From the IMG/VR virus record IMGVR_UViG_3300014206_000007, positions 96,001-160,000 of that record: a stretch of DNA of 64,000 nt; one strand, 5' to 3'. Source of the DNA: a virus. Taxonomy: Duplodnaviria; Caudoviricetes. The number at the start of each line of letters is the position of its first letter. The stretch's first letter is position 1. Positions 3,195 to 64,000 of the stretch are shown one piece after another. Made by a program: the position numbers and the translations under genes. The notes under the pieces are model-generated. The model saw only the letters and a program-made list of their open reading frames with translations, ran no database searches and had not been told where the DNA came from.

Positions 3195-3284
3195 ATTTAT
3201 CCCTTCTTTCTTATTATTGAATATATTATATGATATTTATAAATTATTTATTTGTTTTAATAGTATTTTTATGAAGGAAACTAT

Positions 3285-3482
3285 CTATTGAAAATATGGA
3301 GAATGACAACAACCTAGTCTATTATTATAATTTCGATAATAATCTACACTTTTAATTGTACAGGTATCATATAAATCTCCCATAGGAGATTCGACTCCAT
3401 AAAATTCTTTTATGTTTTTATTGTTATACTCTAATAATTTCATTCTATTAGTACTTAATAAGTCATTAATTAAATTATCCAT
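3285..3482 (-). CDS. Hypothetical protein
   Basis: 65-aa ORF with AAGGA RBS and late motif at 3516-3527. Confidence 0.5.
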   Translation of the reverse strand: MDNLINDLLSTNRMKLLEYNNKNIKEFYGVESPMGDLYDTCTIKSVDYYRNYNNRLGCCHSPYFQ

Positions 3483-3542
3483 AGTATTATTTTCCTTTCT
3501 TATTCTTTAATATATTAAAAAAGTGTTTTTAATATTATATCT

Positions 3543-3827
3543 TTATAATATATATAATAATAAAGCTAAATAATGAATAATTTGATCTTGCGTATAACTA
3601 ATTATTTTGTATCTTGATTTAAGTGAATCGATTACTATATGTATACAAAATATGTATAGTAGAATAGTATTTATTCCAAATAATATTGCAAAAGGAATAC
3701 AATATGTTACACAATGCACAAATAAATGATACCAATTCTCTCCTTTAGTAGTAGCAATAAATTCAGTTGAAAGAATATAATCGCCAATTATATGGCACAT
3801 AATTAATATTACTATTTTTTCTATCAT
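3543..3827 (-). CDS. DUF3307-like small membrane protein
   Basis: H-x-x-GDY, H, H-x-x-ID, DQ-x-x-H pattern; hydrophobic. Confidence 0.7.
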   Translation of the reverse strand: MIEKIVILIMCHIIGDYILSTEFIATTKGENWYHLFVHCVTYCIPFAILFGINTILLYIFCIHIVIDSLKSRYKIISYTQDQIIHYLALLLYIL

Positions 3828-3896
3828 TTATATTCATCTCCTTTATATATTTTAAAGTCATTATAGAATAAAATCTATAATGACTTTAATTTTTAT

Positions 3897-4825: not shown

Positions 4826-5140
4826 TTAGTCCCCTTTCTTATTATCAGGATTAAAATATCTAATAAATTTATTATTTTTTCCTACATTAACTTCATCTTC
4901 CATTTTAAGTTCATGTATTCTCTTTATGATATTTTCCGCAAGTTCTTTTTCATCTTCCTTTTTAACATAGTTAAAGAATTTAATTGCTTCTAGAACGTGT
5001 TCTTTATCATTTAATGGATATTTCCTTTGTGATGGTAAACCAAAGTCTTCATCTTTTAAAACATTTCTTTCGGCAGTGGTCATCTTTTCGGTTACTATCA
5101 TTAGACTTTCGCAAGTAGTTATTAGTTTATCTAGTTCCAT
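4826..5140 (-). CDS. Small virion-associated protein (DUF6582-like)
   Basis: ERNxLKDEDFGLPxxRKYPLxDxxHV motif; N-terminal TCES; overlaps the stop of the upstream gene. Confidence 0.6.
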   Translation of the reverse strand: MELDKLITTCESLMIVTEKMTTAERNVLKDEDFGLPSQRKYPLNDKEHVLEAIKFFNYVKKEDEKELAENIIKRIHELKMEDEVNVGKNNKFIRYFNPDNKKGD

Positions 5141-8100
5141 TTACTTCATCTCCTTTATTAATTTTATTTAGATTACTAAATGCAACTTTCCAATCATATT
5201 TATAGAAATCATCGCCTTCATCTATTTTAATAACATCCTTCAAATATACAAAGTCATTGGGTCTATATAAACTTGGTGATTTATCTATAATTTTTCCAGA
5301 TGATAAAATATCAGCTACAAATCGACTACAGAAATATTTCTTCCGATTTTCATTTGGAAGTTGTACATAATTTAATAGTAATCCTTTTACATCATATCTT
5401 AATTTATTTTCATTCTTAATGAAGAAGTCTAATCTAGATTTCATATTATCTAAGTCTTGTTTAGTCACATAGATTACATATACTGAATAATATGCCTTAA
5501 ATTTAGTAAAGAATCTATCTTTAGGACTATTCGTTACAAAACCAGTTTTTGTCATATCTAAATCTTTTCTTCCAAATGAATATAATGGATTCAATTTAAC
5601 AGAAAATGATATACATGCATGTGAAAACTTATCCTTAGTAACTGCTTTAATTGCATTTGCTAATGCTGTACCACTATGCATTAATACAATAAATATTGGA
5701 AACTTTTTATCATCATCAATTGAAGATTCTAATACAATATCATTAGATTTATCATAATACTCATTTAAAAATTCTACTATGTTTGAATAGAAAGGTAATT
5801 CCTTTGATTCTGAATTAATAGTATATATTTCATCCGATTCGATAGGTAATATACTTTCTAAAGTATTAAAAATACCATCTACTGATTTTTTTATAATATT
5901 CTCATGTAATCTTTTTTTAGAATCTTCTATCATTTCATTATTAATTTTTATACAATCAATTTGCTTAACATTTTTATTTCTTTCAAAAATAATTATTGGT
6001 CTATATGTCCATTCTGCAGCATCGTTATCATCTATTGTAGCATTATATCCATATTCTTTAAGCTCTTTAAAAAATATTTCTCTGTTATATTCAGAATTTA
6101 TTAAAGATGATATAAAAGATATATAACTTTCGTTGCTCATTTTTGTTATGTGTCTATTTTTCCACTCATTCATAAATTTTTCACTATTATTTCTATATTT
6201 TAATGCGGAAATATCTTTCACGACCTTATTAATATCTACTTTTTCCATAACTTTTAGGAAAATATCAAATCGTTCTTTATATGACGGAATTATAATGTCG
6301 TTTGTAACTTCTAAAATTACTTTATATCCTCTATTTCCCCATTCAATTAAATATTTATCATTATCCTCTTTTGTTTTAGATACATAGATATGGCGATTAT
6401 TATTATTTTCATTTCGAGTTAAAGTAAGCCTTTGCAAATGTGCCCCTTTTTGTATTTTAATTTTATCTAATGAATTTTTATTCATTATAAATTCTTCTTG
6501 CGCTATAGATAGCATTTTATTAGTTACTATATCATTCGATTCGATAAATATTGCACTTTCCATTGCCTCAGCAATTCCATCTATTAAATTTTCTTCTTTG
6601 ATTGCACTATCAAACATATCTTGTGACCAGTTTAATATATCAACCATTCTGGTTGCTAAGTTTTTCTTTTCTCCAGTATCAAGAGTTACTAGATATATAT
6701 CCACTTTTGATGATTGACCAATTCTATGAATTCTATCACATGCTTGATCAAAGTCTGTAGATCTCCATGGTGGACCAAAGAAAAACATTTTATTTGCATC
6801 TACTAATGTTACACCAGTACTCATAGTTTGAGAAGTTGCAACTAATACTTGAACCTCATCATCTTCTTTAAATTGAGTAAGGGTATCTGTACGATTAGTT
6901 TTCACATTACCGGTAATTAATAAAGTTTTAATTCCCTGCTCATTTAAATCTTTAGCAATAAATTCTACAACCTTTTCAAATTGAGAAAAGATTATAACTT
7001 TCTTATTATTATTCTCTATCATATCTATTATTTCGTCTTTATTTTCATTATATAATCGAATGAACATTTCTGAACGTCTAGGATGAATTACTTTTCCTAT
7101 AGCTAAGCCCATTGCAGACCTATCCATATGAATAAATTCTTTCTCTAATCTATCCACTCGTTTAAAATCATTAGCATTATTTATATTAGGTTTTACATAA
7201 GTTGGCACAAAGGATTTCATAAATGCCATATCTAATTCATGTAGATATGTTTGAGCATCAGTATTTATATTCTTTTTAACCCACTTAATATATTTTGCAG
7301 TATCAGATTCACTTGCTCTGGAATATTTGTTAATAAAATTAATATATTCCTGTTGTAAATCCATATTACTCTTCATTTTTTCCTCATATATTCCATAGAA
7401 GAGTGTTATTATTTCTTCTTTACAGTTTGATACTGTATACTTTTCTGAATCAGATAATTTAAAACTTAGCTGATGAATTTCTTTATCTGGTAATGATAGT
7501 TCACTCTTCGTTTTTCTATACATAACCATACCAAATCTCTTCTGTACAATTTCCATTGCTGCAGTGCTACTAATATTAAAGCATTTAGTATAGATTTCGG
7601 CAGCTTCTATTGTAAATAATGGGTCAATCATTAATAATGCTGGTACAATTTCATTTGGAATTGCCTTAATAGGAGTACCTGACATAATTAAATTATCATC
7701 ACTATTTATTTTCCTAACAAGGTCAAGCAATTCTCCAACACGTTGACCATTGATATTTCTAAAATTATGAGATTCGTCTAATATAAACATTGATTTCTTC
7801 TCATCTGTAATATATGGATACATCTTGGATATTGATTCGTTGTTAGTAATAATAAATCTTGCTTTTGATATTTCTCTTGGATTATTATCACAAATTACAA
7901 CTTCTTGTCTCCATAATTCATCATTATTCATATATTTATTATAGTATTCTTTAATTTCTAAAGCCCAGTTATCTTTTAGTGTATTAGGGCATACAATATA
8001 TATTCTTTTAGCATCTAAGCATTCAGCTAACCCAATAGCAGTTAAGGTCTTTCCTAATCCCTGCTCAAATGCATTTATATATCCTCTTAGATTTAATTTA

Positions 8101-10172
8101 GATTTTAATGCTGGATATATTTCAATAAATTCTTTCTGATATGGCAATAATTCTTTTCTATCAATTCTTTTTAAATTCTTTAAACTCAATGCACTTATAT
8201 CTGAAGTATCAGATTTTGATATCCATGTTAAATTATAAATTTTTTGAGCAATCGTTTTATATGCATAGATATTATAATCTTCATACAAAGAATCAAATAG
8301 TATAATTGCCTCTAGAGCAAAGAATATTGGGATAGTCAAGCTTTCTATTCTCATTCTTCCACGAGGAATTTGTTTTTTCTTAAACTTTTTATAATCATAT
8401 GAATTATAATTAAGAATAAAGAGTTTAGTTAAAGCAACTTCTCCATATTTCTCATTAATCATATTGATTAAACGCCTAATGTTAATATGCTGAATTTGAA
8501 TATATTGCTTATTTTTAATTAATGAAACAGTATCAATTTTACTTGAAATTGCACTTCCTAATGCATTTTTAGAAACAAATAATCTGCTCTTCCATGAACT
8601 TATTAATGATTCTTTTGAAGTATTGATACTATTAAATATATCAAATATTGATTCTTGTACTATAGTATCAGTATATGATGTTAAATTACAATTATTTATA
8701 AAAGATTCAACTACATAACTAGATTCCGATTCAGTTGCAATTGACTTTTTAAAATCATTATATTTTTTCTCATTGTCTATATACCAAGCAATTAATTGAG
8801 GAAATTCATTTTTCAATTCAGATTTCCAATCAATTTTTCCGTTAGGAGTGTCTCTTTTAAACCTTTGAAGAACCGATGTTTTTACAGAAGTCCCCATTAA
8901 TATTATAGGCATTTCTTTAATTTTGCTTAGTTCAACCAGTGAAAATATTTGTACTCCCTCTATAATAAACTTTTTATTTTTATGAGAATTACAATATTCA
9001 AGAACGAAATCGAAAAATTTAGTAAATTCAGAATAAAATTCTTCTCTAGAAAATTCCTTTACCGTTTTATCTCGTAAATCTTTTCTTTTTTCTAATAGAT
9101 ATATTTTAAATACTTCTCCTGCTTTAGCAAGTGATTTATCTAGATAAGCATTACTATGCTCAAATATATCCAACTCTATTACTTCTGCTTTATACTCTGA
9201 TGCTAATGATTTGGAAATTGTCGATTTACCAGAACCAGATAGCCCCGTAATAAATAATATGTTAGACTCACCAGATGTAAATTTATCAAAATTTATATAT
9301 AAATTTTTATTGTTAAAGAGATAGCTCTCTTCTACTATTTCATCATCCAATTCCTCTATCTCAACTAATGACTCTAATGCGGCATTATTGGCATCGTTTT
9401 TATTACTATCATTTGTGGCAAACTGCTCTTTTAATTCAAGAAGTTTTTCAAAGAAAGCGGAATAATCTTTATCTACTACCTTTACATAATTAATAGTAGG
9501 TATTTTTTCCATTACTTTATCTTTATCTTCTTCTTTCACTCTATCAATTGCTTGAATTTTATAGTGCTGATTTGTATGACTTTTCACTTCAATTTCTAAA
9601 TTCAATGATGGAATATAAAAATCTGGAATATAGAATCTTTCTCCTTCATTTTCTTTATCATTAGGATTCACGTAGTCATAGTAGTAAGTATGAGGTGATG
9701 GAGCCATTATATCTCCACTATTAAACTGTAGCATTGTATCTAACATCATTAAAAATTCTTTTTCATAACTTCCTACATAGCTAACCATTCCATCATCTTT
9801 AAATTTATATTGCCCAGATATTTTTCTAGAGCTAACCATTTTTCTCTGCATATCTGGATTATCCAATAAATGGACTTTTCCATATTTATTTATCATACGA
9901 TTTTTAAATACTTCTCTATATTTTTCTTTACACTTAGGGTTATCACAAAACCTTTCGTATTTCTGAGTAGCTTCATTCCATTTTGTAGCTCTACCGTCTA
10001 CAATACATTTTCCTTCAGTTTTCTTAGTTTGTAAAAAATAAAAATATCTAGAATGTGTATATCCCTCTGGCATTTCATTCGGATGAAATTTATCCATATG
10101 GGATGACCATCCACTAAATGTTGATAGATTCTTTTTACATATTGGACATTTATATGATTTAACTTTTTGCAT
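5127..10172 (-). CDS. Polyvalent protein: C2H2 finger + PD-(D/E)XK nuclease, P-loop kinase, SNF2 helicase, ART-like domain, permuted papain-like (YiiX/YebB) peptidase
   Basis: CPIC...H...H; PDFY...EVK; GLSGSGKST; EQGLGKT, DESH, SGTP, QACDRIHRIGQ; LQR...YVS...GYNATIDD; FSHACIS...YFCSRFVA. Confidence 0.8.
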   Translation of the reverse strand: MQKVKSYKCPICKKNLSTFSGWSSHMDKFHPNEMPEGYTHSRYFYFLQTKKTEGKCIVDGRATKWNEATQKYERFCDNPKCKEKYREVFKNRMINKYGKVHLLDNPDMQRKMVSSRKISGQYKFKDDGMVSYVGSYEKEFLMMLDTMLQFNSGDIMAPSPHTYYYDYVNPNDKENEGERFYIPDFYIPSLNLEIEVKSHTNQHYKIQAIDRVKEEDKDKVMEKIPTINYVKVVDKDYSAFFEKLLELKEQFATNDSNKNDANNAALESLVEIEELDDEIVEESYLFNNKNLYINFDKFTSGESNILFITGLSGSGKSTISKSLASEYKAEVIELDIFEHSNAYLDKSLAKAGEVFKIYLLEKRKDLRDKTVKEFSREEFYSEFTKFFDFVLEYCNSHKNKKFIIEGVQIFSLVELSKIKEMPIILMGTSVKTSVLQRFKRDTPNGKIDWKSELKNEFPQLIAWYIDNEKKYNDFKKSIATESESSYVVESFINNCNLTSYTDTIVQESIFDIFNSINTSKESLISSWKSRLFVSKNALGSAISSKIDTVSLIKNKQYIQIQHINIRRLINMINEKYGEVALTKLFILNYNSYDYKKFKKKQIPRGRMRIESLTIPIFFALEAIILFDSLYEDYNIYAYKTIAQKIYNLTWISKSDTSDISALSLKNLKRIDRKELLPYQKEFIEIYPALKSKLNLRGYINAFEQGLGKTLTAIGLAECLDAKRIYIVCPNTLKDNWALEIKEYYNKYMNNDELWRQEVVICDNNPREISKARFIITNNESISKMYPYITDEKKSMFILDESHNFRNINGQRVGELLDLVRKINSDDNLIMSGTPIKAIPNEIVPALLMIDPLFTIEAAEIYTKCFNISSTAAMEIVQKRFGMVMYRKTKSELSLPDKEIHQLSFKLSDSEKYTVSNCKEEIITLFYGIYEEKMKSNMDLQQEYINFINKYSRASESDTAKYIKWVKKNINTDAQTYLHELDMAFMKSFVPTYVKPNINNANDFKRVDRLEKEFIHMDRSAMGLAIGKVIHPRRSEMFIRLYNENKDEIIDMIENNNKKVIIFSQFEKVVEFIAKDLNEQGIKTLLITGNVKTNRTDTLTQFKEDDEVQVLVATSQTMSTGVTLVDANKMFFFGPPWRSTDFDQACDRIHRIGQSSKVDIYLVTLDTGEKKNLATRMVDILNWSQDMFDSAIKEENLIDGIAEAMESAIFIESNDIVTNKMLSIAQEEFIMNKNSLDKIKIQKGAHLQRLTLTRNENNNNRHIYVSKTKEDNDKYLIEWGNRGYKVILEVTNDIIIPSYKERFDIFLKVMEKVDINKVVKDISALKYRNNSEKFMNEWKNRHITKMSNESYISFISSLINSEYNREIFFKELKEYGYNATIDDNDAAEWTYRPIIIFERNKNVKQIDCIKINNEMIEDSKKRLHENIIKKSVDGIFNTLESILPIESDEIYTINSESKELPFYSNIVEFLNEYYDKSNDIVLESSIDDDKKFPIFIVLMHSGTALANAIKAVTKDKFSHACISFSVKLNPLYSFGRKDLDMTKTGFVTNSPKDRFFTKFKAYYSVYVIYVTKQDLDNMKSRLDFFIKNENKLRYDVKGLLLNYVQLPNENRKKYFCSRFVADILSSGKIIDKSPSLYRPNDFVYLKDVIKIDEGDDFYKYDWKVAFSNLNKINKGDEVNGTR

Positions 10173-10202: not shown

Positions 10203-10270
10203 TATATGAATGTTTTTGCGCACTTTTTTGTTTACGAATATAAGATAATAACATTATCAACACAAATTTA
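10203..10270. promoter_or_regulatory. Divergent pair of late promoters (AACA-N6-TA): 10203-10214 (-) and 10259-10270 (+)
   Basis: Exact motif on each strand upstream of the two divergent genes. Confidence 0.65.
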
Positions 10271-10295: not shown

Positions 10296-11189
10296 ATGAT
10301 AAATATGAATATTGAAAAAGTTGAATATGTTTCTATATTCGATACATATACACAACATGAAAATGAATTAAATAAAATATATAATATGGATTACGCTATG
10401 GAAGCGGCTGAAGATAATTCAATAAATAAAGATAAAAATATATCACCTGATAGTATAGACGAAACTTTATCTACAAAAATATCAAATTTAATAGAAAAGA
10501 TATCGGAGTTTATCGAGAATTTAATAATGTCGCTTAAGAATAAATTCAGACAGTTAATGGTAACTGATAAAGGATTTGCTAAAGAACTAACTACTATGCA
10601 ACGTGATAGAAAACCTTTAAATGCAGTTAAAGTTATTAACTATCAATATATACCAGAGTTATTAACTGCTCAATATGGTAAAATAAAAACAGTTTCAACT
10701 AGACTAGTATCTAAGGCAAATGGAAGTGTAACAAATGATCCAAATAGTCCATTGTTATTAGATAATGGTGAATTTGAAATAATGCTTTTAAAGGAAATTG
10801 GATTTACTGAAGGAAAAACTTTTAAAGAATATTTAGATTATATTAAAAGAACTTTCCGAGGAGAAAAAAAAGAAGTCACTATTTTAAAATCTCAAATTCC
10901 AGTATATAAGAAAAATGTTGATGGATATAAAGAGTTATATACAACATTAAATACTGACCTTGTAGATTTAAAAAGTGATATATCTAATTTAAAGAATAAG
11001 ACTAAATTATCATTAAGAAATAAAAATTCTGAGGAAATAGATAAGAAAAAAATTATTATGCAAATTAGAAATCTTAGTAATTTATATAACTTTTTCCTTA
11101 GCTATATCAATCTTTACCACGAATTATCAGTTGAGCTTATGCTGAGTTCGAGGATAATATTACGAAAAATGTATCAAATGCAGAGATGA
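10296..11189 (+). CDS. Probable internal head protein
   Basis: AMEA motif followed by amphipathic helix KISEFIENLIMSLK, as in phiKZ-type internal proteins; late promoter. Confidence 0.55.
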   Translation: MINMNIEKVEYVSIFDTYTQHENELNKIYNMDYAMEAAEDNSINKDKNISPDSIDETLSTKISNLIEKISEFIENLIMSLKNKFRQLMVTDKGFAKELTTMQRDRKPLNAVKVINYQYIPELLTAQYGKIKTVSTRLVSKANGSVTNDPNSPLLLDNGEFEIMLLKEIGFTEGKTFKEYLDYIKRTFRGEKKEVTILKSQIPVYKKNVDGYKELYTTLNTDLVDLKSDISNLKNKTKLSLRNKNSEEIDKKKIIMQIRNLSNLYNFFLSYINLYHELSVELMLSSRIILRKMYQMQR

Positions 11190-11301
11190 TTATAAACAAT
11201 ATCGTAAGTATGAAAATACTTCCAACCCTACTTGTTGGTTACCTGTTTCTCTCCATGTTTTTCATTTTTGTATTTCTCCTTGATCAGTACGCTAAAGAAA
11301 T

Positions 11302-11652: not shown

Positions 11653-14166
11653 TTATTTCTTTTTATAAATTTTCCTTTCTATTGGTTCATCATGTGTTTC
11701 AACAAAATCTTCTTCTGTATTTTCATCTTCGTCATCAATTTCGGTATCTTCCTCAAATACTTGAGTATTCTTACCCTTAGTAGTGCGAATCAACATTTCT
11801 TTTATATCAGTGCTTATATCCATTTCTTTTATATGTTGAAGATTAAATACATAGTCCCATGCAATATCCTGTCTTTCTCCCTCGTATGTTTCAATTAATG
11901 TTACAGATGATAAATACTTATTATACTCATTAAATAAAGTAACATACATTAGTTTATTCAATGGTGTATCATAAATTATATACTTATCAATGTATAATGG
12001 TGCAATAGCATCAATTAAAACGTCTTCAGTCTTATCACATTCACGGACAAATTTAATTTTTAATCCAATTGCTTTTAGTTTAGCATTTAAAATATCAGCA
12101 TTTGCATTAATAAAATTATCTTTAATATCAAGTTGCTTTAATTCAAGTGGATTGCCATCAGTTTCTAATATTCTATCTAATGATTTTCTTCCTAATGTAG
12201 AAGATCTCATAAAGATATTCCATTCTGCCAATGTAGTACCACTTATAGAACTCATTAGATTATATATTTCGGATAATCTAATTGGCGATCTTGCATATGA
12301 TGAACGATTAGTTTTCTTTGCAATATCTTTAGTTGGTAGATTAGCACGATTAACTCTAAATGTACTTCTTGCTGAGAAGTTTTTATTACTATTCTGCTTT
12401 AGAATTATCATGTATTTATCTCCAACTATTCCATCTTTTATAATTCTTCGTTTCGTTGTACCAAATATATTGATGTATAATGGTAATGGTTTAATGAAAC
12501 TAAATTCATCATATAAAGTAGCAATCGTTTCATAACGAATCATTGCATCTGGTGGCTTTACAATATAAAAACCATTCGTTTCAATATCTCGAATGAAGTC
12601 TTTTTTACCTTTTGGATCTAATAAATTTATGTTAATACCTTTTTTATTTACTACCTTATCAAGGGAATGATAATAATTTTTATAGAAATCACATTCATCT
12701 TTATTAACTATTTCAAGAAATCTAAATATTATATCTAGTTTATCTTGATCATTATCTAAAGTACAAATTCTCTTTCTTAATTCTTCCCCTACAAAATTTA
12801 ATTCAACTTCAACTAATTGTCCAGTGTTTAGTCTACGAATTGAACCACTCATATTTAGTATTATATCTACTGGAAAATCATCAGTGTATGGCATCTTATC
12901 ATCATCGACGATGGCAATGCTCTTAGATAATTTATCCCTTTCTTCTTCAGTGGACTCCTTGCCCATCATTCCTAATATATTATTATAAACTTCAGTTTGT
13001 ACTGGTTCAGTTATTCTAGAGATAACACCTTTATCTCCATAACGTCCAGCAATTTTTGAACCTGGGGCAAGTTCTATTAATGATTTTACCTTAAAAATTA
13101 TAAGCATATTACTAAATTCTTTATCTTTATTTTTCCATTTGTATTCAGAGTCATTAAAGTGCATATGCTTTGATCTAAAATATGTCACATTATTTGTAAA
13201 TTTAGACCCTGATTCTTTTATATCAGTTGCCCATTGATATATTTTATTTGAATATTCGCAGATATCATCATAATAAAGTTTAAGCTGATGATAAAATATG
13301 TTATCTGGGAATGGTTCAGATTTGTTATAATATATATCAATATCATAAATCTCACTATCGTGAGTAACAAAGAAATCCGTATCAGTACTATTTATTTCTT
13401 TCATATACTGAGGTTGAAAATCATATAATAAATGGTTCTTATTTATTCTTCTAGTAGCACATAATGTACTATTAATAACTCTTTCACCAACATTTGGAAA
13501 TGCTTGATATTTATCATCATTACCATATAAATTTAACGGAATATCGTTATCGTTTATAGGAACTACGACTTCATCAACTTCTGATGATATAACTTGATTG
13601 GCCCACCCTTTTCTAATTACGACAGCATCTTCAAGGGTATCATTACTAGTACTATAATACACTTTGGCATTTTTACCATAACGATAATTCATATGCTCAT
13701 CATACGAGGTTGATTTATACAATATTTCATCCTTAATAGTATCTCCAACAGATAGAGCATCCATTCTTTCAGTATTATATAAATAACCAAATTTCTCAGT
13801 AAGGTTTTCAGCAACCTTTTTCTCTATTATATCATAAGTATCAGTCATCTTATTATATAATATTAATGTGTAGATAGTTTTATTATTACTAAATTTATAT
13901 ATAATATCCTCAACAGTCCACGTTCCCGTCAACTTTTTATATGCGGTATTATATTTTCCTATAATGTTTTCAAATCCAGTTTGGACTCTAGGAATATCGG
14001 GATTCAATAATGTCAAGACCTGCTTTAAGTTTGATGTAAACATATATCCTCTTGAACTATCACAGTCAAGTGGATATCCAAGTAAAGTAGGACCAAACAT
14101 TTTATACATCTGATCTCCGTATTCATCATCCATTTTAATTAATGCATCTTTTAAATTTACAGACAT
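11653..14166 (-). CDS. Non-virion RNA polymerase beta subunit, C-terminal part
   Basis: DSSRGYMFTSNLKQ (cf. DANRALMGSNMQRQ), EDAVVI, GSKIAGRYGDKGVIS, VDIILN, FSARS; split-subunit architecture as in phiKZ/AR9. Confidence 0.9.
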   Translation of the reverse strand: MSVNLKDALIKMDDEYGDQMYKMFGPTLLGYPLDCDSSRGYMFTSNLKQVLTLLNPDIPRVQTGFENIIGKYNTAYKKLTGTWTVEDIIYKFSNNKTIYTLILYNKMTDTYDIIEKKVAENLTEKFGYLYNTERMDALSVGDTIKDEILYKSTSYDEHMNYRYGKNAKVYYSTSNDTLEDAVVIRKGWANQVISSEVDEVVVPINDNDIPLNLYGNDDKYQAFPNVGERVINSTLCATRRINKNHLLYDFQPQYMKEINSTDTDFFVTHDSEIYDIDIYYNKSEPFPDNIFYHQLKLYYDDICEYSNKIYQWATDIKESGSKFTNNVTYFRSKHMHFNDSEYKWKNKDKEFSNMLIIFKVKSLIELAPGSKIAGRYGDKGVISRITEPVQTEVYNNILGMMGKESTEEERDKLSKSIAIVDDDKMPYTDDFPVDIILNMSGSIRRLNTGQLVEVELNFVGEELRKRICTLDNDQDKLDIIFRFLEIVNKDECDFYKNYYHSLDKVVNKKGININLLDPKGKKDFIRDIETNGFYIVKPPDAMIRYETIATLYDEFSFIKPLPLYINIFGTTKRRIIKDGIVGDKYMIILKQNSNKNFSARSTFRVNRANLPTKDIAKKTNRSSYARSPIRLSEIYNLMSSISGTTLAEWNIFMRSSTLGRKSLDRILETDGNPLELKQLDIKDNFINANADILNAKLKAIGLKIKFVRECDKTEDVLIDAIAPLYIDKYIIYDTPLNKLMYVTLFNEYNKYLSSVTLIETYEGERQDIAWDYVFNLQHIKEMDISTDIKEMLIRTTKGKNTQVFEEDTEIDDEDENTEEDFVETHDEPIERKIYKKK

Positions 14167-14653: not shown

Positions 14654-15859
14654 TTATTTATCCCATTCATCATCTAACATATCACCATATCTAATAGTTT
14701 CTTCTTTAGTAAGTTCTTTAGTACCTAGTAGTGCTTCAAAATAAGGTCTTAATGTTGTTAATACTCCATTTCTAAAATCGGATTCATTAATGAATTTAGT
14801 CCTAAATAATTTCCTACTAAATTTCATTGTATCTAATCCTGTTAGATATAAATATGGATTTCTTCCTTGAATGATTCCGATTGAATCGGCATATTCATAT
14901 AATGAATATATTGGATCAAATCCGATATCTTTATTAAATGCAATATCAATTGTAGAGCCAATGAAGTTTGATTTAGTTTTAGCAATTTGGACTGTTGCTT
15001 TAAATCCTTCAAATCCAACTTCTGATTTATCATACATATTGGATTTTATCATACTGATTCTAAAATAATTCTGAGAATAAAATTGAGTAGCTTTTCCTTT
15101 TGGAAGTACTTCACTTGGTCCCAGCATCAACATACCTTTTGGCGGAACTTTAAATTTATTAGTCTCAACGTTTTCTAATATATGATTGATAGTTATCATA
15201 TTAATATTATATTTCAGCATTCTATCTAAGCAGTTATTATAGAAACGTTTTAAATCCTTTGCTGCTCTTGCAGGGTCCATATTGGTTCCTAACTCATCAA
15301 CTTCAGTACTATTTGAATTGAATGATGGTAACGAATCGATAATAAATACTGTTGGAATATAAACTTTAAACGGTTTCCCATCATATGACATATCTTTTAT
15401 TTCATATTTATATTTATCTCCACCAGATTCTTTCAATTCGCAAATCTGATTAAACATATCGAGTACATCTTCTATGGTTGTATTTTGATTTTTTAAGATG
15501 ATTCGTTCATCATCCATGTTTGTGCCGGTTATTCTAATCAATCTTTGTTTTAATGCCGTTCTTTCAGCATCAATGTGAAATAATAAGCTATCTTCAAATG
15601 ATTTAACTATACTGAATCCTATTTGATCAGCTAATGTAGTCTTACCAGTACCAGTATTGCCCATTATTCCAGTAAATGATCCGCCACGTATTCCTAACAT
15701 CGGAACCATTTTACTATTTCCTTTTGCATCTCTTACTTCTTGCCAAAATCCATTGGCATAATCCAATGGTAATATACCAGTTGAATATGTTACAAATTGG
15801 TCATCTGATGTAAATAGACCAGCTTTATCTTTACCTTTTAATTCTGCTAATAATCCCAT
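14654..15859 (-). CDS. RecA/UvsX-like recombinase
   Basis: TGILPLDY, Walker A GNTGTGKTT, IDAE, Walker B IIDSL, INH. Confidence 0.85.
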   Translation of the reverse strand: MGLLAELKGKDKAGLFTSDDQFVTYSTGILPLDYANGFWQEVRDAKGNSKMVPMLGIRGGSFTGIMGNTGTGKTTLADQIGFSIVKSFEDSLLFHIDAERTALKQRLIRITGTNMDDERIILKNQNTTIEDVLDMFNQICELKESGGDKYKYEIKDMSYDGKPFKVYIPTVFIIDSLPSFNSNSTEVDELGTNMDPARAAKDLKRFYNNCLDRMLKYNINMITINHILENVETNKFKVPPKGMLMLGPSEVLPKGKATQFYSQNYFRISMIKSNMYDKSEVGFEGFKATVQIAKTKSNFIGSTIDIAFNKDIGFDPIYSLYEYADSIGIIQGRNPYLYLTGLDTMKFSRKLFRTKFINESDFRNGVLTTLRPYFEALLGTKELTKEETIRYGDMLDDEWDK

Positions 15860-15979
15860 ACTTTTTAATTTCCTCCTCTTTAATCATTATACAAATAATA
15901 TATTCTCAAAATGAATTTATATCATTTGCTATATAAATTTGTTAAATTGATAATATTTTTATAGTAAAATATATAAAAA

Positions 15980-25054: not shown

Positions 25055-25095
25055 GTTTATGCCTCCTCCTTTCTAGTTTATTCATATGGATGCTG

Positions 25096-50509: not shown

Positions 50510-50551
50510 AAACAATGGGATAAATTAATAAATGAATTCAAATAAAATTAA

Positions 50552-51838: not shown

Positions 51839-51941
51839 AAAATAGGAGGATATAAAAGTATCCTCCTATTTTTACCACGAATTAATACAAAAAACAATCT
51901 CATAATCAATATACATATACCGAAAGAAAGGGGTAGTTATT

Positions 51942-55839: not shown

Positions 55840-55875
55840 AATAAGAGTATGAGCAATTACGCTCATACTCTTATT
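55840..55875. terminator. Bidirectional terminator
   Basis: 15-bp stem, 6-nt loop, between convergent genes. Confidence 0.75.
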
Positions 55876-56629
55876 AAATTTTATAAGTATTACTTTTTAA
55901 TCCCAAGAATATATCAGTATACAAATTTTGATTATTATTTATCTTTGTCAATAAATCATTTGTATATTCAATAATCTCAGTGTTAGAAATATCAATATTA
56001 TGTGTTAGATTATTCAATCGTCCTTTTATGCCAGAAATTATTTCAGCATAAGTATAGTCAATTGGCGGATTATCAATTAATTCATATAACATCGGCTCTT
56101 TTAATTTAGCTATATAATTTCTTCTGTTATTAAGATTGAATTTTTCTTCTATGGCTCTAGCAAAATTAAAAAATTCTCTAAAATATGTAGTGAATAATTT
56201 AACTACTGAGACAGAGTTTACTAAAACTTCCTCAAAAACATACTCATTATCTTTAATAACTGGTCTAAATAATACTTTATCAGTATTCTTAACTGTAATA
56301 CTATCTTTTATTAAATGCTTAAATGTATTATATTCAGATTCATTCTTAGGTAAAATATCATCTGTTAATTTATTAATATAATCTTCACTATTTCGGCAAA
56401 GTCCATGCAATCTTTCTAAATACCCTAAGTATTTGCCATCAATATCTTGTATCAGTTCTCTAATTTTAGGTATGTTAGTTCTATACTCTTCATCAGGAAT
56501 ATTGAGAACAAAATCACCTGCTTCTAGTATTTTGATATTAAGAGTATTTACCATTTCTCTAATATCAGTAATATCATCCATTGCATTATCATAATAATGA
56601 TGTAATGGTTTATCTAAATTATTTAACAT
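55874..56629 (-). CDS. Hypothetical protein
   Basis: 251 aa, GGAGG RBS. Confidence 0.7.
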   Translation of the reverse strand: MLNNLDKPLHHYYDNAMDDITDIREMVNTLNIKILEAGDFVLNIPDEEYRTNIPKIRELIQDIDGKYLGYLERLHGLCRNSEDYINKLTDDILPKNESEYNTFKHLIKDSITVKNTDKVLFRPVIKDNEYVFEEVLVNSVSVVKLFTTYFREFFNFARAIEEKFNLNNRRNYIAKLKEPMLYELIDNPPIDYTYAEIISGIKGRLNNLTHNIDISNTEIIEYTNDLLTKINNNQNLYTDIFLGLKSNTYKI

Positions 56630-56733
56630 ATAAAAAATACCTCCTTAATTTTAGTTTATTATAATGAATAATGATTAAATATCATCTTAATCAAATTGTT
56701 TTTGATAAGGTGATATTTAATCATTTATATGTC

Positions 56734-57733: not shown

Positions 57734-59050
57734 TTAAATTCTACCCATAAGTTTCATGACTTCTTTCATGTTCGTTAAGTCAACTTCTTTATTATTAGAA
57801 GTCTTCAAAGAACTAAGAGAAACAGATGTGAACTCATTAGTACCATCTTCGTCAAATAACATAGATAATATTTTAGTCTCAGTATCATAAATCCCAAATC
57901 CTAATAAGTAATATTTACTTATCAATTTAAGGGCATTATAAACTTCTGATAAGTTAACTCCGCCCAATTCAGCAATTTGCTCTACTTCATAATTAGTAAT
58001 AATTGCTGTTGTATGAGGAAGTACTCCATTTTTGAAAAACTTAGTTACATTATTAATAGCTTTTCTTCTTTTTAATGCTTTTATCCATCTAAGAGAATCT
58101 TTAGATGTAGAAGTTGCCATTTCTTTTATTTCTGTAGCATTAAATACAAAGTCTCTTAAAAACTTATATTCGCCTTTAGTCCATTTGATAAATTTGAATA
58201 TTCCATAAGAGTCTTTAGATGCTTCAACCATATTAGCAACCATTAAATCAGATCTAATGGCTCTAATCATTGTTTTAACGCCAATTACAACATTCTGAAC
58301 TATCTGACCCTGACCCTCACCATGTAAAACGAATTGGGCATTAATCATTGTAGGTTCAAGAGCTGTAGTTTTATCATTCTTGATAACCGATGGTGCATCA
58401 ATAGGATATTTATGATCTTTATTTACTCCAGTAAATTCATGATCCCTTAAATCCTCATTGTATTTTAGGTTAACTCTTTTCATTGTGTCATATGTTTTAG
58501 TGCCCTGAATCTTTTTAACTAATTCACTTCTATCATCAGAAGCTTCTTTAGCAATTTGAATCTTTTCTTTTAGAGCAGTTTTAGTTCTCTCATAAGGTTT
58601 ATAAATATCATTAACCTTACTAGTATTTACTTGCTCTTCAATAATATCCCAGCACGCTGTTCCTAATCCAAGTGGTTGATTGGAATTGTTTAATATATTC
58701 GCTGATTCGAATACCATGTTAGTTGCAGCTTTTATATTTGCCGGAATATCTTTATTATTATGGAAGGTTGTTAAATAGGATTGTAGATTTTCATATTTAT
58801 CGAGTGGTACTGAACCTCTCAATGAAAATACGGATACTAACAATGATGCATATTGACGTTCTAATGCTTTTGCCAATATTGTTACATCATCAGTATCTAT
58901 TGATGAGCTTACTAGTAGTGGGAATTGAAATATAGAGTCTTGAGCCATTCTAGTCAAACTATTTCTCCCAGTTGAAGCTTTTATAAATTGTGCTATCTTT
59001 GTAGAATTTCGTATTACTTTAGACATATTTTGGTCTATTTTGATTTCCAT
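57734..59050 (-). CDS. Probable virion structural protein
   Basis: 438 aa, late promoter 59099-59110, VFES/AKEA motifs. Confidence 0.6.
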   Translation of the reverse strand: MEIKIDQNMSKVIRNSTKIAQFIKASTGRNSLTRMAQDSIFQFPLLVSSSIDTDDVTILAKALERQYASLLVSVFSLRGSVPLDKYENLQSYLTTFHNNKDIPANIKAATNMVFESANILNNSNQPLGLGTACWDIIEEQVNTSKVNDIYKPYERTKTALKEKIQIAKEASDDRSELVKKIQGTKTYDTMKRVNLKYNEDLRDHEFTGVNKDHKYPIDAPSVIKNDKTTALEPTMINAQFVLHGEGQGQIVQNVVIGVKTMIRAIRSDLMVANMVEASKDSYGIFKFIKWTKGEYKFLRDFVFNATEIKEMATSTSKDSLRWIKALKRRKAINNVTKFFKNGVLPHTTAIITNYEVEQIAELGGVNLSEVYNALKLISKYYLLGFGIYDTETKILSMLFDEDGTNEFTSVSLSSLKTSNNKEVDLTNMKEVMKLMGRI

Positions 59051-59177
59051 ATTAAAAATCTCCTTTCATAGAATAATATGATTAATATTACAAATATTTA
59101 TTTTAATGTTCCCGATGCATATAACCTTAATAAAAAAAAATAAAGCTCTATGAAAGCAGCTTTATTTTTGTACTCTA

Positions 59178-59735: not shown

Positions 59736-59962
59736 TATTTTTCACCTCCATATATTAGCGCTTTTAATAGTCTTAGCAAGGTAGGATTACCAAAAATCAT
59801 ATTTTATACACCTAAATAATATATAATTAAAATTATCCATGATAAATTTTTAATTAACTTTTTGCATCAGTTTATAACCCCCAGAACAAATTTCGTAATT
59901 AAATGCATATTAAATGAATAAATAAAACTTAAAATTTATAGAAAGTTGGTGAAAAAATAGAT

Positions 59963-60928
59963 ATGGGATATCAACCAGTAAGTTATTTGTCCTATCGAAA
60001 TGGGCAAGATAACGATGAAAGAGTTCACATAGATGGAAATTTGCAACCGCCATCATTCCAAAGCATGTATCAAAATTTTGATCGCTTTTATTCAATATAT
60101 CCCGATACAGAATTGGTTGATTTAAAACAATACATTTTTTTAGTTCGACCCGAACTAAATGTTTTGTCAGAATCCAATCCAAACGTAGTTAGCGAAACAT
60201 GTTCGAAGGATAATTGGATGAAGCTAATGGCAAAAGATAATAATATAATGATGAGGCATCTTACAACTGCATTAGACCCAAATCATGATTTTATGACATT
60301 TTTAGTTGGAAGAACCGAATCATTACAGATACCAGATTATAGTCTAAAAAATTATAGTATAAGTCAACCATATACAAATTTCTTGATGCCATATGCAACA
60401 AATGCAATTGAGTCAAGAACAGGAGGAACATTTGATATTATTTTTAGAGAAGATAATAAACTTCGTGTTAATAAATTATTTTATACATGGATGTATTATA
60501 TAGATGCGGTTAATAGAGATATCTTTACACCAAAATATAAGTATATCATATATAATAAATTTGATTATGTTACTAGTGTATACCATTTTGTATGTGCCCC
60601 TGATGGGGAAACCATATTATGGTGGAGTAAGTATACAGGATGTATACCAATAAATGTACCAAATAGTAACTTGAGTTTTAATCTTAGAGGTCAAGCAGAT
60701 AATAAAATATCAGTATCATTTGCATACTTCTTACATGAAGCAATGACTCCAGATATTTTAGCGGACTTTAATCAAAATTCAAGAGCAAGCATGAATCAAT
60801 ATGTTCCGACATATGATGAATATTCACATGGTTCTGGAAACGCCTTAGTTGGGGCTCCATTTATATATAGAAAAGATTCAGAAGCATATCAATATTATCT
60901 AAGATGGAGAAGACCTAGACAATTTTAA
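59963..60928 (+). CDS. Tail tube-like/baseplate protein
   Basis: FDIIFRE...FYTWM, KYTGCIP, ISVSFAY patterns resemble the tube fold; precedes the large baseplate gene. Confidence 0.55.
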   Translation: MGYQPVSYLSYRNGQDNDERVHIDGNLQPPSFQSMYQNFDRFYSIYPDTELVDLKQYIFLVRPELNVLSESNPNVVSETCSKDNWMKLMAKDNNIMMRHLTTALDPNHDFMTFLVGRTESLQIPDYSLKNYSISQPYTNFLMPYATNAIESRTGGTFDIIFREDNKLRVNKLFYTWMYYIDAVNRDIFTPKYKYIIYNKFDYVTSVYHFVCAPDGETILWWSKYTGCIPINVPNSNLSFNLRGQADNKISVSFAYFLHEAMTPDILADFNQNSRASMNQYVPTYDEYSHGSGNALVGAPFIYRKDSEAYQYYLRWRRPRQF

Positions 60929-60956
60929 AAAATAATATAAAGGAGGTATAGTTATT

Positions 60957-63896
60957 ATGGACTATAGTAATTTATCAGAAATTAAAAAATATTGGCTTGA
61001 AGAAATTGCACCAAACTATTTTGATATGGAAAATACAAATAATTACCAAGTTGGTATATTTGGCTATATAAATGAAATAATTGGAAATACTGCTGAAGAT
61101 TCATTCAATGCTATCAATATAGCAAGAAGAGAATTCTATCCAGTAACCGCTCAATATAAGCAGTCCTTATATAAAATGGCTGCAACACAAAAAATTGATT
61201 TACCATTAACAACTCCAGCATCTTCTAAAGCAATTCTAATATTCAAAGAAGATGAAATAGTGAGTAATGGTACTTATAATAATGGAGTCTATACATGTGT
61301 AATTGATAGTAGTTTACAAATTATGGCAGGAGATATTCCATTCCTTTTGGACTATCCAATAGTTATAATTTCTAAAAGAGAAGGAAATAAGTGGATACAC
61401 ACATCTCACTATCAAATTGATATAGAAAACTCTTTAAGTAATAACCCAAACCGTTATATCATGAATAAAACAATTATCCAGAGTGGGGTAAGATATGTTT
61501 TATTATCGGTATCATTAAAGCAACTTTCACTTGAATCGATGTCTCAATTGGTAGTGAAAGATAATATAGTTAATACAGTAACAATGGATTTTAGATTTAG
61601 TGGAAATTTAGCTAACTTCGAAGTTTTTTATCGTGAAGTAACTGGCTCTACTAATGATATCCAATTAAAGAAAGTTTTAAAGGGTGGCTCAGCACCACCT
61701 AATCCATTCTGTTATTATGAAATCGTCGATCCAAATATAATAAGATTGACATTTAAGAAGAATGTATATTTCAATCCTGCATTTAATTCAGAAATTATAT
61801 TAAATGCATATACATCTCTAGGAGATGCAGGAAACTTTGAAGTATTTAAAGATGCATTAACATGTACTGCAAAATCAGAAAAATACCCTTATAATAATAA
61901 GATGATTATTACTGGTAAAATTAATGGTAGTAGTAGAGGTGGAGTTAATGCTGTCGTAGATGAAGAATTTAGAAAATTAATTACTGATGCATATAGCACC
62001 AATAATACAATTACTACATCTAATGATTTACAAATTTACTTTGATAAAGTTGCCAGAATTAATCAAGATGCACAAAAAACTAAAGTTCTTTTTAGGAAGA
62101 AACGTGATGATGCATTGGTTAGATTATATGGTGCATATATTTTATTAAAAGACACATATAATAATATTGTGCCTACAAATACCGTCGACCTTAATTTATG
62201 GAAGAATGATATAAGTCCAGCTGGTCCTGACTCATCTAATCGTATATTTATAAAACCAGGAACACTTTTTGAATATGAAACAGGAGTGTTTACTGCAAAA
62301 AAGGTAAGCGATTTAACAATAGTTGATGATTTAAATGTGTATGATGATAATAGTAGATTTATTTTCTCAAATCCATTTCTTATCGCACTCACATTAGACC
62401 CTAATGTAGTTGGTTACTACTTAAACTCAATCAATTCAATTAAACCAATTGAATATAAATATGTAAATGATAATACACTAAATCAGTTTATTGGAAGTAA
62501 TCTTAAATTCTACAGAAATGCATTGATAGGAGAAAATTTCTATAAAATTTCAATGACAATTTCGCCAGCATCAGAAATTGATCCGGCTACTATTGTAACG
62601 GTTAATTCTCCAGCAGAGGTCGCTAATGTCATTAGAGCTCCAAAAAATGGAATATTATTAAATATTCAATATGAAACTGATGGAGTTTATGCTAATTTCT
62701 TATATGACGATGCAACTACTCAGAAAATTCAAGTAAATAATATCGTTAAAAAGAATATCGTTTCTGGAGCATTTGAATATGTTACTGGATATGATATCCA
62801 AATTGAAGCATCTAAAAGATTTATACAAAATGATATCCTTGCAATAAAAAAAGATACCGATCTTGGTAGAGTAAGAATTGGGTTAGACTTTAAAAATATT
62901 TTATATGACAATCTCTATTATATTCCATTTACTATTGAGAACTATGATGCCAATTTAAATAGTTATGATATTGCGGCATATATATCAACTGACGATACCC
63001 TTACTCTCGAAGCACATTTATTAATTGAACATGGGATTATTAATAACACTGGTATAGAGAATGACAATATTACAATTCCAATGAACCAATTGGATGCTGA
63101 AATACATGTCTTCTTCAATAACTATGATACTAACTATTCCCATCAATATGACGGATTTGACTATTTTAGAAGTTATACGTTAACTAATACTTATAGCCTA
63201 GATGGTACTGAAGAAAATTATAAAGTATCATTAATTCAGCAAATTGATTTTATCCGTAGCACAATGACATTTACAGATAATCTCGAAGACCCAACTAATT
63301 TTGGAATCGTGTTAAAAGAAGTACCAGTATCTAAAGCTAACTGGTGTAAATCAATATCGAATTTTAGATATCTAATCGATAATATTTATGATAACTATCT
63401 AAAATTATCAGATACATATTACACATTAGAAAATAACTATGGTATTGACTTAAAATTCTTTAATACTTACGGTAAATCAAGATTCTTTAATGTTGGTCTT
63501 AAAAATATTACTAGTGTATTGGATAGTGTCAACTGCTCATTTAGTTTTGGAGTTTACTTGACTTCATTAACCTCACCAAATGTATTTTTAACTGAATTTA
63601 GACAATTTGTAAAAGACTATATAGAATCAATTAATTCAGTGAGTGTTTCCGGACAATCATTGTATATAATGAATCTTATTACTAGTCTGAAAATGAAGTT
63701 TTCTGAAATTGGTTATATTGAATACTATGGTCTTAATAGCTATAGCCACGAAGCACAAAAAATTGAAGGATTATCGAATGCTCAAATTGTAGCTTCGGGA
63801 ATAACTGACTATATTCCTGAATTTATTAATATACATTCAGTTCAAGAAGGCGCTGAGATGGTTCCGCAAATTAATATACTATTACTTGATTCATAA
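60957..63896 (+). CDS. Large baseplate wedge-like protein
   Basis: 979 aa; N-terminal E.YP.TA...SLY..A, YTSLG..GNF, S.GG..., ITTSNDL, as in T4 gp6/baseplate J-like proteins. Confidence 0.65.
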   Translation: MDYSNLSEIKKYWLEEIAPNYFDMENTNNYQVGIFGYINEIIGNTAEDSFNAINIARREFYPVTAQYKQSLYKMAATQKIDLPLTTPASSKAILIFKEDEIVSNGTYNNGVYTCVIDSSLQIMAGDIPFLLDYPIVIISKREGNKWIHTSHYQIDIENSLSNNPNRYIMNKTIIQSGVRYVLLSVSLKQLSLESMSQLVVKDNIVNTVTMDFRFSGNLANFEVFYREVTGSTNDIQLKKVLKGGSAPPNPFCYYEIVDPNIIRLTFKKNVYFNPAFNSEIILNAYTSLGDAGNFEVFKDALTCTAKSEKYPYNNKMIITGKINGSSRGGVNAVVDEEFRKLITDAYSTNNTITTSNDLQIYFDKVARINQDAQKTKVLFRKKRDDALVRLYGAYILLKDTYNNIVPTNTVDLNLWKNDISPAGPDSSNRIFIKPGTLFEYETGVFTAKKVSDLTIVDDLNVYDDNSRFIFSNPFLIALTLDPNVVGYYLNSINSIKPIEYKYVNDNTLNQFIGSNLKFYRNALIGENFYKISMTISPASEIDPATIVTVNSPAEVANVIRAPKNGILLNIQYETDGVYANFLYDDATTQKIQVNNIVKKNIVSGAFEYVTGYDIQIEASKRFIQNDILAIKKDTDLGRVRIGLDFKNILYDNLYYIPFTIENYDANLNSYDIAAYISTDDTLTLEAHLLIEHGIINNTGIENDNITIPMNQLDAEIHVFFNNYDTNYSHQYDGFDYFRSYTLTNTYSLDGTEENYKVSLIQQIDFIRSTMTFTDNLEDPTNFGIVLKEVPVSKANWCKSISNFRYLIDNIYDNYLKLSDTYYTLENNYGIDLKFFNTYGKSRFFNVGLKNITSVLDSVNCSFSFGVYLTSLTSPNVFLTEFRQFVKDYIESINSVSVSGQSLYIMNLITSLKMKFSEIGYIEYYGLNSYSHEAQKIEGLSNAQIVASGITDYIPEFINIHSVQEGAEMVPQINILLLDS

Positions 63897-64000
63897 AATT
63901 ATTGGAGAGATAAAATTCTCTCCAATATTTACTTTATTTATATACGAAAACAGACTAATAAAAATAAAATATTTTAATCGAAAGGTGTGAAAATTTTTAT

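Follow-up and report, generated by a model that had tools for sequence, protein, structure and literature searches.

The stretch of DNA analysed here, called the window below, comprises 64,000 nucleotides (nt) of the genome of an uncultured giant phage (Duplodnaviria; Caudoviricetes), bases 96001-160000 of IMG/VR virus record IMGVR_UViG_3300014206_000007, and repeatedly carries the motif AACA-N6-TA ahead of its genes. In AR9/PBS1 (Takahashivirus), late promoters of the form 5'-AACA-N6-T(A/G)-3' are used by a non-virion RNA polymerase (nvRNAP) holoenzyme that contains gp226 (PMC5312081, PMC5449584, PMC9209446). The original prediction, made from the letters of the window, took the motif for an AR9-type late promoter and saw in it a hint of a uracil-DNA genome; our analysis upholds the promoter and points to thymine as the probable template base.

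The record is 219,918 bp long, complete and bounded by direct terminal repeats. The genome has a GC content of 27.9%, the standard genetic code fits it, and gene calling with a codon-usage model gave 224 genes covering 91% of its length. By tblastn against the AR9 genome (KU878088), 57 of the 224 predicted proteins have a match at 21-50% identity, and gene order is shared in part. The matching genes include those for structure and packaging (major capsid protein, prohead protease, sheath, portal, terminase) and for replication (DNA polymerase, primase, DnaB, UvsX, gyrase, SbcCD, ligase); judged by these matches, the phage is a distant relative of AR9.

By our gene calls, 17 exact copies of the late motif lie within 150 nt upstream of a start in the window, as compared with the 15 upstream copies counted originally, all of which are present. 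They are given here by window position and strand, with open reading frames (ORFs) sized in amino acids (aa):

3245-3256, minus: 62 nt before the gene for a 566-aa tail protein (1494-3194; phrog_5302 match), the target of a diversity-generating retroelement (DGR)
3516-3527, minus: 45 nt before the 65-aa ORF 3285-3482
10203-10214, minus: caaAAACA-N6-TAA, 42 nt before the gene for a 1681-aa nuclease/AAA/SNF2 protein (5127-10172)
10259-10270, plus: 37 nt before the 297-aa ORF 10296-11189, back-to-back with the site at 10203-10214
15932-15943, minus: 84 nt before a UvsX-like gene (14654-15859), with an early motif nearby at 15888-15902
21590-21601, minus: 34 nt before 20842-21567, a gene homologous to part of AR9 g078
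22489-22500, minus: 39 nt before the 269-aa ORF 21652-22461 (weak match to a phiKZ internal head protein)
24984-24995, minus: 125 nt before the 381-aa ORF 23725-24870, with an early motif at 24899-24913
32490-32501, minus: 110 nt before the 150-aa ORF 31939-32391, overlapped by an early-type motif
34132-34143, minus: 51 nt before the 155-aa ORF 33625-34092
34544-34555, minus: 39 nt before the holin gene 34214-34516 (Phage_holin_5_2, Pfam 88.8 bits)
40680-40691, minus: aaaAAACA-N6-TAA, 59 nt before the gene for a 2022-aa BNR-repeat structural protein (34564-40632)
45656-45667, minus: 62 nt before the gene for a DnaB-like helicase (43947-45605)
50511-50522, plus: 41 nt before the 336-aa ORF 50552-51562
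51893-51904, plus: aaaAAACA-N6-TAA, 49 nt before the 967-aa ORF 51942-54845
59099-59110, minus: 60 nt before 57734-59050, a gene homologous to AR9 g214 (minor virion protein)
63949-63960, plus: 38 nt before the 528-aa ORF 63987-65573, which extends beyond the window end

The five variants with an N7 spacer that had been pointed out are also present:

18966-18978, minus: AACA-N7-TAA, 67 nt before the 332-aa ORF 17913-18911
31766-31778, minus: 53 nt before GyrB (29320-31725), with an early motif at 31798-31812
56688-56700, minus: AACA-N7-TAA, 71 nt before the 251-aa ORF 55874-56629
59885-59897, plus: AACA-N7-TAA, 78 nt before a tail-tube-like homolog of AR9 g213 (59963-60928)
1427-1439, minus: the weakest candidate, 275 nt upstream of the reverse-transcriptase gene (82-1164)

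The motif thus stands ahead of genes for UvsX (recA), DnaB, the holin, the DGR-target tail protein, the BNR-repeat protein and the g078-, g214- and g213-like proteins, which agrees with the original assignment to structural, lysis and virion RNA polymerase (RNAP)-related genes, UvsX and DnaB. The 'virion RNAP' placed behind it holds for the g078-like gene and fails for the 2022-aa ORF; the latter was rejected as a virion RNAP, its tblastn matches being BNR/baseplate-type proteins, and megablast of this gene against cultured phages returned no match. The reverse-transcriptase gene (82-1164, minus strand; RVT_1, 47.5 bits) adjoins that of the tail protein at 1494-3194, the pair forming a DGR.

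Exact AACA-N6-TA occurs 35 times in the window, and the non-coding 7.6% of the window holds 19 of the 35 copies (binomial p = 6e-13), 18 of which are oriented towards a gene that follows on their own strand, its start codon mostly 34-62 nt away. Across the upstream intergenic DNA of the whole genome (16 kb), 52 sense copies stand against 12 antisense copies and against 11.1 +/- 3.2 sense copies expected when the same DNA is modelled as a second-order Markov chain (500 runs, highest count 24), an approximately 5-fold excess that bears out the upstream enrichment suspected at the outset. The spacer is specific, with 52 sense copies at N6 and 4-20 at other spacings from N2 to N10, or 41 and 0-13, respectively, when the TAA ending is required. 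Single-base variants of AACA or TA, at any of the six fixed positions, showed no comparable enrichment or strand bias, and A is strictly kept at both -11 and -10. Aligned, the genome sites give the longer consensus (a)aAACA-N6-TAA (TA is followed by A in 42 of the 52), and they lie 29-67 nt before start codons (median 48 nt). Within genes the motif is rarer than in synonymous-codon shuffles (sense 50 vs 113 +/- 10, antisense 14 vs 58 +/- 6), and this depletion in coding DNA is strongest, with the lowest ratio, at N6 among all spacings; AACA by itself is also depleted in genes (ratio approximately 0.73), therefore only part of the effect is motif-specific. As a positive control, AR9 was put through the identical pipeline and gave 62 sense and 24 antisense copies at N6 with the same spacing specificity. 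A shuffle of the whole window (35 observed vs 83 +/- 9) looks negative but misleads, since coding DNA, 92% of the window, avoids the motif and the signal sits upstream of genes. These results confirm that AACA-N6-TA is a real, N6-specific and gene-directed signal.

Two further copies in the window deserve mention. The one at 11195-11206 (plus strand) directly follows the stop of ORF 10296-11189; no gene follows on its strand, and its product may be a short non-coding or antisense transcript. The other, at 23764-23775 (minus strand), lies within the 3' end of ORF 23725-24870, 51 nt before the adjacent gene 22537-23724 (AR9 g052 homolog), and is a candidate internal promoter, comparable to the 13 late promoters described as internal in AR9.

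A second signal was found among the commonest upstream 10-mers, ATATATTATT and TATATATTAT, each in 31-33 upstream regions. The genome holds 47 copies of TATATATTAT, 38 of them within its non-coding 8.7%. Alignment of the sites gives TATATATTAT-N6-R: 44 of 47 have a purine where early transcripts start in AR9, whose early consensus is AAATATATATTAT-N6-G (PMC5312081). The raw 8-mer form TATATTAT-N6-R is not enriched over the whole window (25 vs 21 expected), so that only the intergenic placement and the 10-mer are informative. Sites that precede genes or operons in the window include the following:

15888-15902, minus: early motif TATATTAT-N6-R (virion-RNAP type), before the operon of UvsX and nvRNAP beta-C
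20824-20838, minus: before the operon 20750->17913, which contains a tubulin gene
31798-31812, minus: before the GyrB/GyrA operon
43030-43044, minus: before the gene for a RecD-like helicase (41792-42958)
46761-46775, minus: before the 141-aa ORF 46303-46728, upstream of DnaB
49821-49835, minus: before the 433-aa ORF 48458-49759, with an Mre11-like gene downstream

The operon that begins with the UvsX-like gene runs on into a YbiA-like gene and the gene for nvRNAP beta-C. An early-type motif also occurs at 40954-40968 (minus strand), 336 nt upstream of the 2022-aa gene, in a gap of 344 nt free of ORFs, where the late motif at 40680 lies as well; a separate small transcription unit is possible there. 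Among genes with an AR9 homolog and an upstream region of their own, and with N6 or N7-TAA counted as late, none of the 15 structural or virion-RNAP genes has the early motif in front of it, and 8 of the 12 genes for replication or the nvRNAP do (Fisher p = 2e-4). The late motif without the early one precedes 12 of the 15 and 1 of the 12, respectively (Fisher p = 3e-4). Several replication genes carry both motifs and in this resemble the continuously expressed gene class of AR9.

The genes for the polymerase that would read the late motif are all encoded in the genome and are listed here together with a virion-RNAP homolog from the window:

Window 11653-14166, minus: nvRNAP beta-C, homolog of AR9 gp089 (tblastn 33% identity, E = 1e-82)
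Genome 81962-83671: nvRNAP beta-N homolog (tblastn vs AR9, E = 9e-35)
Genome 78793-80859: nvRNAP beta'-C homolog (tblastn vs AR9, E = 2e-45)
Genome 210228-211682: nvRNAP beta'-N homolog (tblastn vs AR9, E = 6e-37)
Genome 23753-25306, minus: gp226 homolog (tblastn vs AR9, E = 4e-18)
Window 20842-21567, minus: matches part of AR9 g078, which carries the annotation virion-RNAP subunit / HD phosphohydrolase (tblastn 42% identity, E = 4e-25)

The four split nvRNAP genes are homologs of AR9 g089, g105, g154 and g270, and virion RNAP genes are represented by homologs of g145, g189, g264 and g078. A profile of the gp226 clade (19 homologs) matched the AR9 gp226 structure (PDB 7S01_A) with E = 1e-22 over residues 6-440, and the AlphaFold model of the homolog (mean predicted local distance difference test score 75) has the same structure as its best PDB match (E = 2e-16, template modelling score 0.47/0.52). 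The third PDB match to this model was gp68 of phage phiKZ (8QUE_B, E = 6e-5); no sequence-level similarity of this fifth subunit to phiKZ gp68 was detected. In a cultured-phage collection, the gp226 homolog matched only AR9/PBS1-type Bacillus phages and Yersinia phage phiR1-37; in metagenomes it has at least 249 relatives, many on contigs of 200-283 kb. The N6-specific motif, the kinship to AR9, the gp226 homolog and the split nvRNAP genes together support the original assignment to AR9-type late promoters.

The base chemistry of the template is the point at which this phage probably departs from AR9. The AR9 holoenzyme reads the template strand as 3'-UUGU-N6-AU-5' (PMC9209446; PMC7598289), and thymine at template -11 or -10 abolishes recognition (PMC9209446). 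The three characterised deoxyuridine (dU) phages, PBS1/AR9, phiR1-37 and DSS3_VP1, each encode a dCTP deaminase of the CMP/dCMP-deaminase family and an enzyme of NT5C, HD-YfbR or Ham1 type that destroys deoxythymidine (dT) nucleotides (PMC12697855). The original prediction named a dCTP deaminase among the genes to be expected of a uracil genome and the presence of a thymidylate synthase as evidence against one. The genome encodes the following enzymes of nucleotide metabolism:

Genome 37075-37962: ThyX, an intact 295-aa ORF (PF02511, 93 bits)
Genome 81172-82005, minus: thymidylate-kinase-family protein, adjoining the nvRNAP beta-N gene
Genome 90231-92960, minus: class II (B12) ribonucleotide reductase with an ATP-cone and an intein

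Over its full length, ThyX shares 53-63% identity with FAD-dependent thymidylate synthases from the chromosomes of Clostridia, and it keeps every invariant residue of its subfamily, including the VRKRLASYLIKSGR motif; neither ThyX nor ThyA occurs in AR9 or phiR1-37. Its kin come from Desulfitobacteriaceae, Desulforamulus, Halocella, Natronospora (Halanaerobiales among them) and other Clostridia, and this sequence kinship hints at an anaerobic host of the Bacillota. In the complete genome the dCMP/dCTP deaminase family (PF00383) had no match at E <= 0.1, in a search that was positive in the dU phages AR9 (76.7 bits) and phiR1-37 (69.6 bits). Tblastn found no homolog of AR9 Dcd (g221), no homolog of the AR9 dTMPase Dtm (g151) was found in the genome, and similarity to AR9 Ugi (g104) was absent (best E = 0.56). 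Neither PF12917 (HD-YfbR) nor PF01725 (Ham1) matched in the genome, and Pfam scans of the 100-1000-aa proteins without an AR9 match revealed no dUTPase, dimeric forms included, and no uracil-DNA glycosylase, HD-YfbR, Ham1, MazG or deaminase. ThyA is likewise absent from the genome. With an intact thymidylate synthase present and the deaminase absent, the uracil genome originally suggested is not supported, and on thymine DNA the accompanying idea that the DGR reverse transcriptase works in a dUTP pool lapses.

The promoter-binding pocket points, less clearly, in the same direction. In AR9, U(-10) sits in a pocket formed by V206 and I207 of gp226 with R363 and K375 of beta-N, and G(-9) stacks on Y210 of gp226; the substitution V206G lets the enzyme take T at -10, and close gp226 homologs of dU phages retain the valine (PMC9209446). 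At -11, thymine is shut out by packing against the DNA backbone and not by one particular side chain (PMC9209446). The pocket helix reads ADRAIWKQKK in the phage studied here, SDVVIWTYLK in AR9 and SDQVIWRYLA in phiR1-37. The gp226 homolog expected by the original prediction is thus present, with V206 replaced by A and Y210 by Q; I207 and W208 of the 2.1bis helix are kept. In beta-N of this phage and of two relatives, R363 is replaced by K and K375 by T. In all, this phage has changed four of the six named pocket residues, and on the alignment the uracil pocket is not conserved in this phage. Residue 206 varies freely among 109 clade homologs (38 have G, 37 V, 15 I, 8 P and 11 another residue), and position 210 is Q or K in the clade.

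Seven IMG/VR records with a gp226-like gene were used as relatives; the following bear on the question:

G004: 254.6 kb, complete; residue 206 G; ThyA (243 bits); dUTPase-family protein
G005: 254.9 kb, complete; residue 206 P; ThyX (205 bits); dUTPase (86 bits)
G002: fragment; residue 206 V; ThyA; dCMP deaminase
G006: fragment; residue 206 V; ThyA; dCMP deaminase
G007: fragment; residue 206 P; ThyX

ThyA and dCMP deaminase together make up the classical pathway to dTMP. At N6 the late motif counts are 29 sense and 9 antisense in G005 (GC 42%; at most 9 at other spacings) and 28 and 16 in G004 (at most 14 at other spacings), and both genomes also have an early motif of TATATTAT type and show the TAA ending specific to the clade. 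Relatives that bear the motif encode ThyA or ThyX, therefore the promoter system spans a clade that encodes thymidylate synthases. A correlation of residue 206 with the presence of a thymidylate synthase was looked for and not found: ThyA occurs with V (G002, G006) and with G (G004), and the relatives with P (G005, G007) have ThyX. The nvRNAP beta-N homolog of G005 matches in two pieces (62956-61496 and 61195-60800), which suggests an intron, an intein or a split gene.

A PhuZ-like tubulin gene lies in the window at 19051-20226 (minus strand; PF00091, 49 bits; phrog_4733), in the operon behind the early-type motif at 20824-20838. The tubulin family is also present in G004, G005 and G007, and not in AR9 or phiR1-37. 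The published division separates RNAP phages with thymine DNA and a tubulin or nucleus from uracil-DNA phages without a nucleus (PMC7598289), and the distribution of tubulin fits it as circumstantial evidence.

We therefore favour the joint reading, with a probability of roughly 0.77, that AACA-N6-TA is the late promoter of the phage's own nvRNAP and that its template is thymine DNA. The promoter assignment is the firmer part and we hold it with high confidence; ordinary thymine in the virion DNA is, from gene content and pocket residues, highly probable. Transcription start sites and the pairing of polymerases with motifs are taken over from AR9 by homology. For starts at the A/G of the TA/G element and a late timing that depends on phage protein synthesis, as in the AR9-type system, the support is the placement of the motif before structural genes. 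The injected virion RNAP would start at TATATATTAT-N6-R and serve the replication genes and the nvRNAP subunit genes, including that of the gp226 homolog. The nvRNAP, made up of four split beta/beta' subunits and the sigma-like, gp226-like fifth subunit, would then initiate as a holoenzyme at (AA)AACA-N6-TAA ahead of structural, lysis and virion-RNAP genes. The DNA would be melted around AACA at -11 to -8 and the transcript would start at the A of TA, giving 5' untranslated regions of approximately 20-55 nt, and the temporal programme would be that of AR9. The phage's own ThyX would supply dTMP for a thymine template, and the promoter-binding pocket would be remodelled at the residues that exclude thymine in AR9.

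Several observations pull the other way. Ala206 keeps its C-beta, which in AR9 lies 3.9 A from uracil C5, and A is strictly kept at -11 and -10, where thymine in the AR9 template abolishes recognition. On a thymine template these positions might be read along an altered DNA path in the remodelled pocket, or with more weight on the contacts that the N-terminal domain of gp226 makes to non-template AACA; both are no more than possibilities. The genome has no trimeric dUTPase gene, and there is no clean early or late motif before ThyX. Ugi-like inhibitors are small and fast-evolving, and the Pfam scans had a floor of 100 aa. PF06941 had no match here, and as a dTMPase probe it is insensitive and uninformative, missing even the enzyme of AR9; a dT-destroying enzyme of unrelated sequence is conceivable. 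Two nucleoside-2-deoxyribosyltransferase-like genes (Nuc_deoxyri_tr2, PF15891; 40 and 56 bits), at genome 26171-26599 and 213165-213794 (both plus strand), could act on the deoxynucleotide pool.

These points give some room to the view that dU does replace dT, that the gp226-like subunit needs template uracils, and that ThyX is a relic, an anti-host or early-only enzyme, or has another role. In favour of this, the phage has the very consensus, with strict AA at -11/-10, whose recognition requires uracil in AR9; the only cultured phages matching its gp226 homolog are the known dU phages of the AR9/PBS1 type and phiR1-37; I207 and W208 are kept and alanine retains the C-beta; a dUTPase gene is missing; and the two deoxyribosyltransferase-like genes could in principle remove dT nucleotides. 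We nevertheless consider this unlikely. ThyX is intact and well conserved, the Dcd-type deaminase present in all three characterised dU phages (PMC12697855) is lacking, as are homologs of AR9 Ugi and Dtm, and four of six pocket residues have changed. Relatives with the same promoter encode ThyA or ThyX, both complete ones with dUTPase-family matches, and the PhuZ-like tubulin occurs here and in three relatives, both complete ones included, and not in AR9 or phiR1-37.

Another C5-modified pyrimidine or a partial substitution, for example 5-hydroxymethyl-dU (5-hmdU) or a hypermodified thymidine, is improbable. Base modification is frequent in jumbo phages, and the two deoxyribosyltransferase-like genes and a DUF488-N3 protein, the latter found in the genome by Pfam scan, might be drawn on in its favour. 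However, known 5-hmdU pathways begin with a ThyA-type dUMP hydroxymethylase; this genome has no ThyA-type enzyme, its ThyX belongs to the housekeeping bacterial subfamily, and the Pfam scans detected no hypermodification family of glycosyl, amino or kinase type. That the motif, with only six specified bases in DNA of 28% GC, is an AT-rich by-product or an element for a host RNA polymerase or regulator instead of a phage promoter is very improbable, given the approximately 5-fold excess over the Markov model with strict N6 and orientation specificity and no single-base variant alike, its identity to the experimentally mapped AR9 late promoters with all five cognate polymerase subunits encoded, its partition with structural genes and its retention in relatives of up to 42% GC.

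On the favoured reading of a late promoter on thymine DNA, we lean slightly towards the view that uracil dependence is a derived speciality of the AR9/PBS1 and phiR1-37 lineages and not a property of the promoter, and that a large uncultured clade of low-GC jumbo phages reads (AA)AACA-N6-TAA on thymine DNA through a remodelled pocket. If so, the pocket variants (G, V, I, P or A at 206, Q or K at 210, R363K and K375T in beta-N) would be natural counterparts of the engineered V206G. Reviews describe uracil as the way in which jumbo phages without a nucleus keep their polymerase off host DNA, and a 2026 review still presents it as these phages' means to direct their polymerase (PMC13282480). Phages with PhuZ-like tubulin may, on this reading, achieve the same by compartmentation and not by base chemistry. 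The motif is currently described as working on dU templates only, yet the clade keeps promoter and polymerases and encodes thymidylate synthases, and our literature search found no paper on AR9-type promoters in relatives encoding a thymidylate synthase. The motif alone cannot predict uracil genomes from sequence. The clade offers a natural series of pocket variants for tracing the origin of uracil versus thymine selectivity, and for annotation the two motifs already chart which transcription units are early and which are late in this phage and in its relatives.

Some features of the genome lie outside these questions. The large terminase is encoded in two pieces (genome 46820-47788 and 49258-50571, plus strand) with a gene for an HNH-type endonuclease between them (47865-48878), an interruption similar to that in AR9, where TerL is broken by an intron and a homing endonuclease. 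A PPK1-type polyphosphate kinase is encoded at genome 113-1885 (plus strand). GATC occurs 337 times in the whole genome against 736 expected and GGATCC 0 times against 15; GATC avoidance is weaker in AR9, from which GGCC is wholly missing (0 vs 60 expected), and the differing avoidance probably reflects different host restriction systems. Avoidance of palindromes was given no weight as a proxy for restriction exposure, AR9 avoiding T-containing sites too (GGTACC 0 vs 18).

Set beside the known systems, the phage shares with AR9 the late core motif and the early motif, each with its spacing, the split beta/beta' sets for two RNAPs, gp226, and the division of early and late motifs between replication and structural genes. 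It differs from AR9 in its low protein identity, in that its clade adds an A after TA (81-90% vs 29% in AR9) and an A-rich 5' extension, and in that it has ThyX, the thymidylate-kinase-family protein and tubulin, with Dcd, Dtm and Ugi homologs not found. The dU jumbo phage phiR1-37 has a gp226 homolog in g245, the match covering the region of the 2.1bis helix, and keeps SDQVIWRY with the critical Val and Tyr, where the phage described here has Ala and Gln. Its genome has a Ham1-type dTTPase as well as a dCTP deaminase (PMC12697855) and lacks a thymidylate synthase, the reverse of the situation here for deaminase and synthase. Phage phiKZ has thymine DNA, a phage nucleus, the PhuZ tubulin and a five-subunit nvRNAP with the sigma-like gp68 of related fold; the fold of the sigma-like fifth subunit, a tubulin homolog and, probably, thymine DNA are common to both phages, whereas the late promoters of phiKZ have TATG at the start site and no AACA element. 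The phage is thus a solid new member of an AR9-related clade and, if its DNA is thymine DNA, represents a new variant of the AR9 promoter-recognition system.

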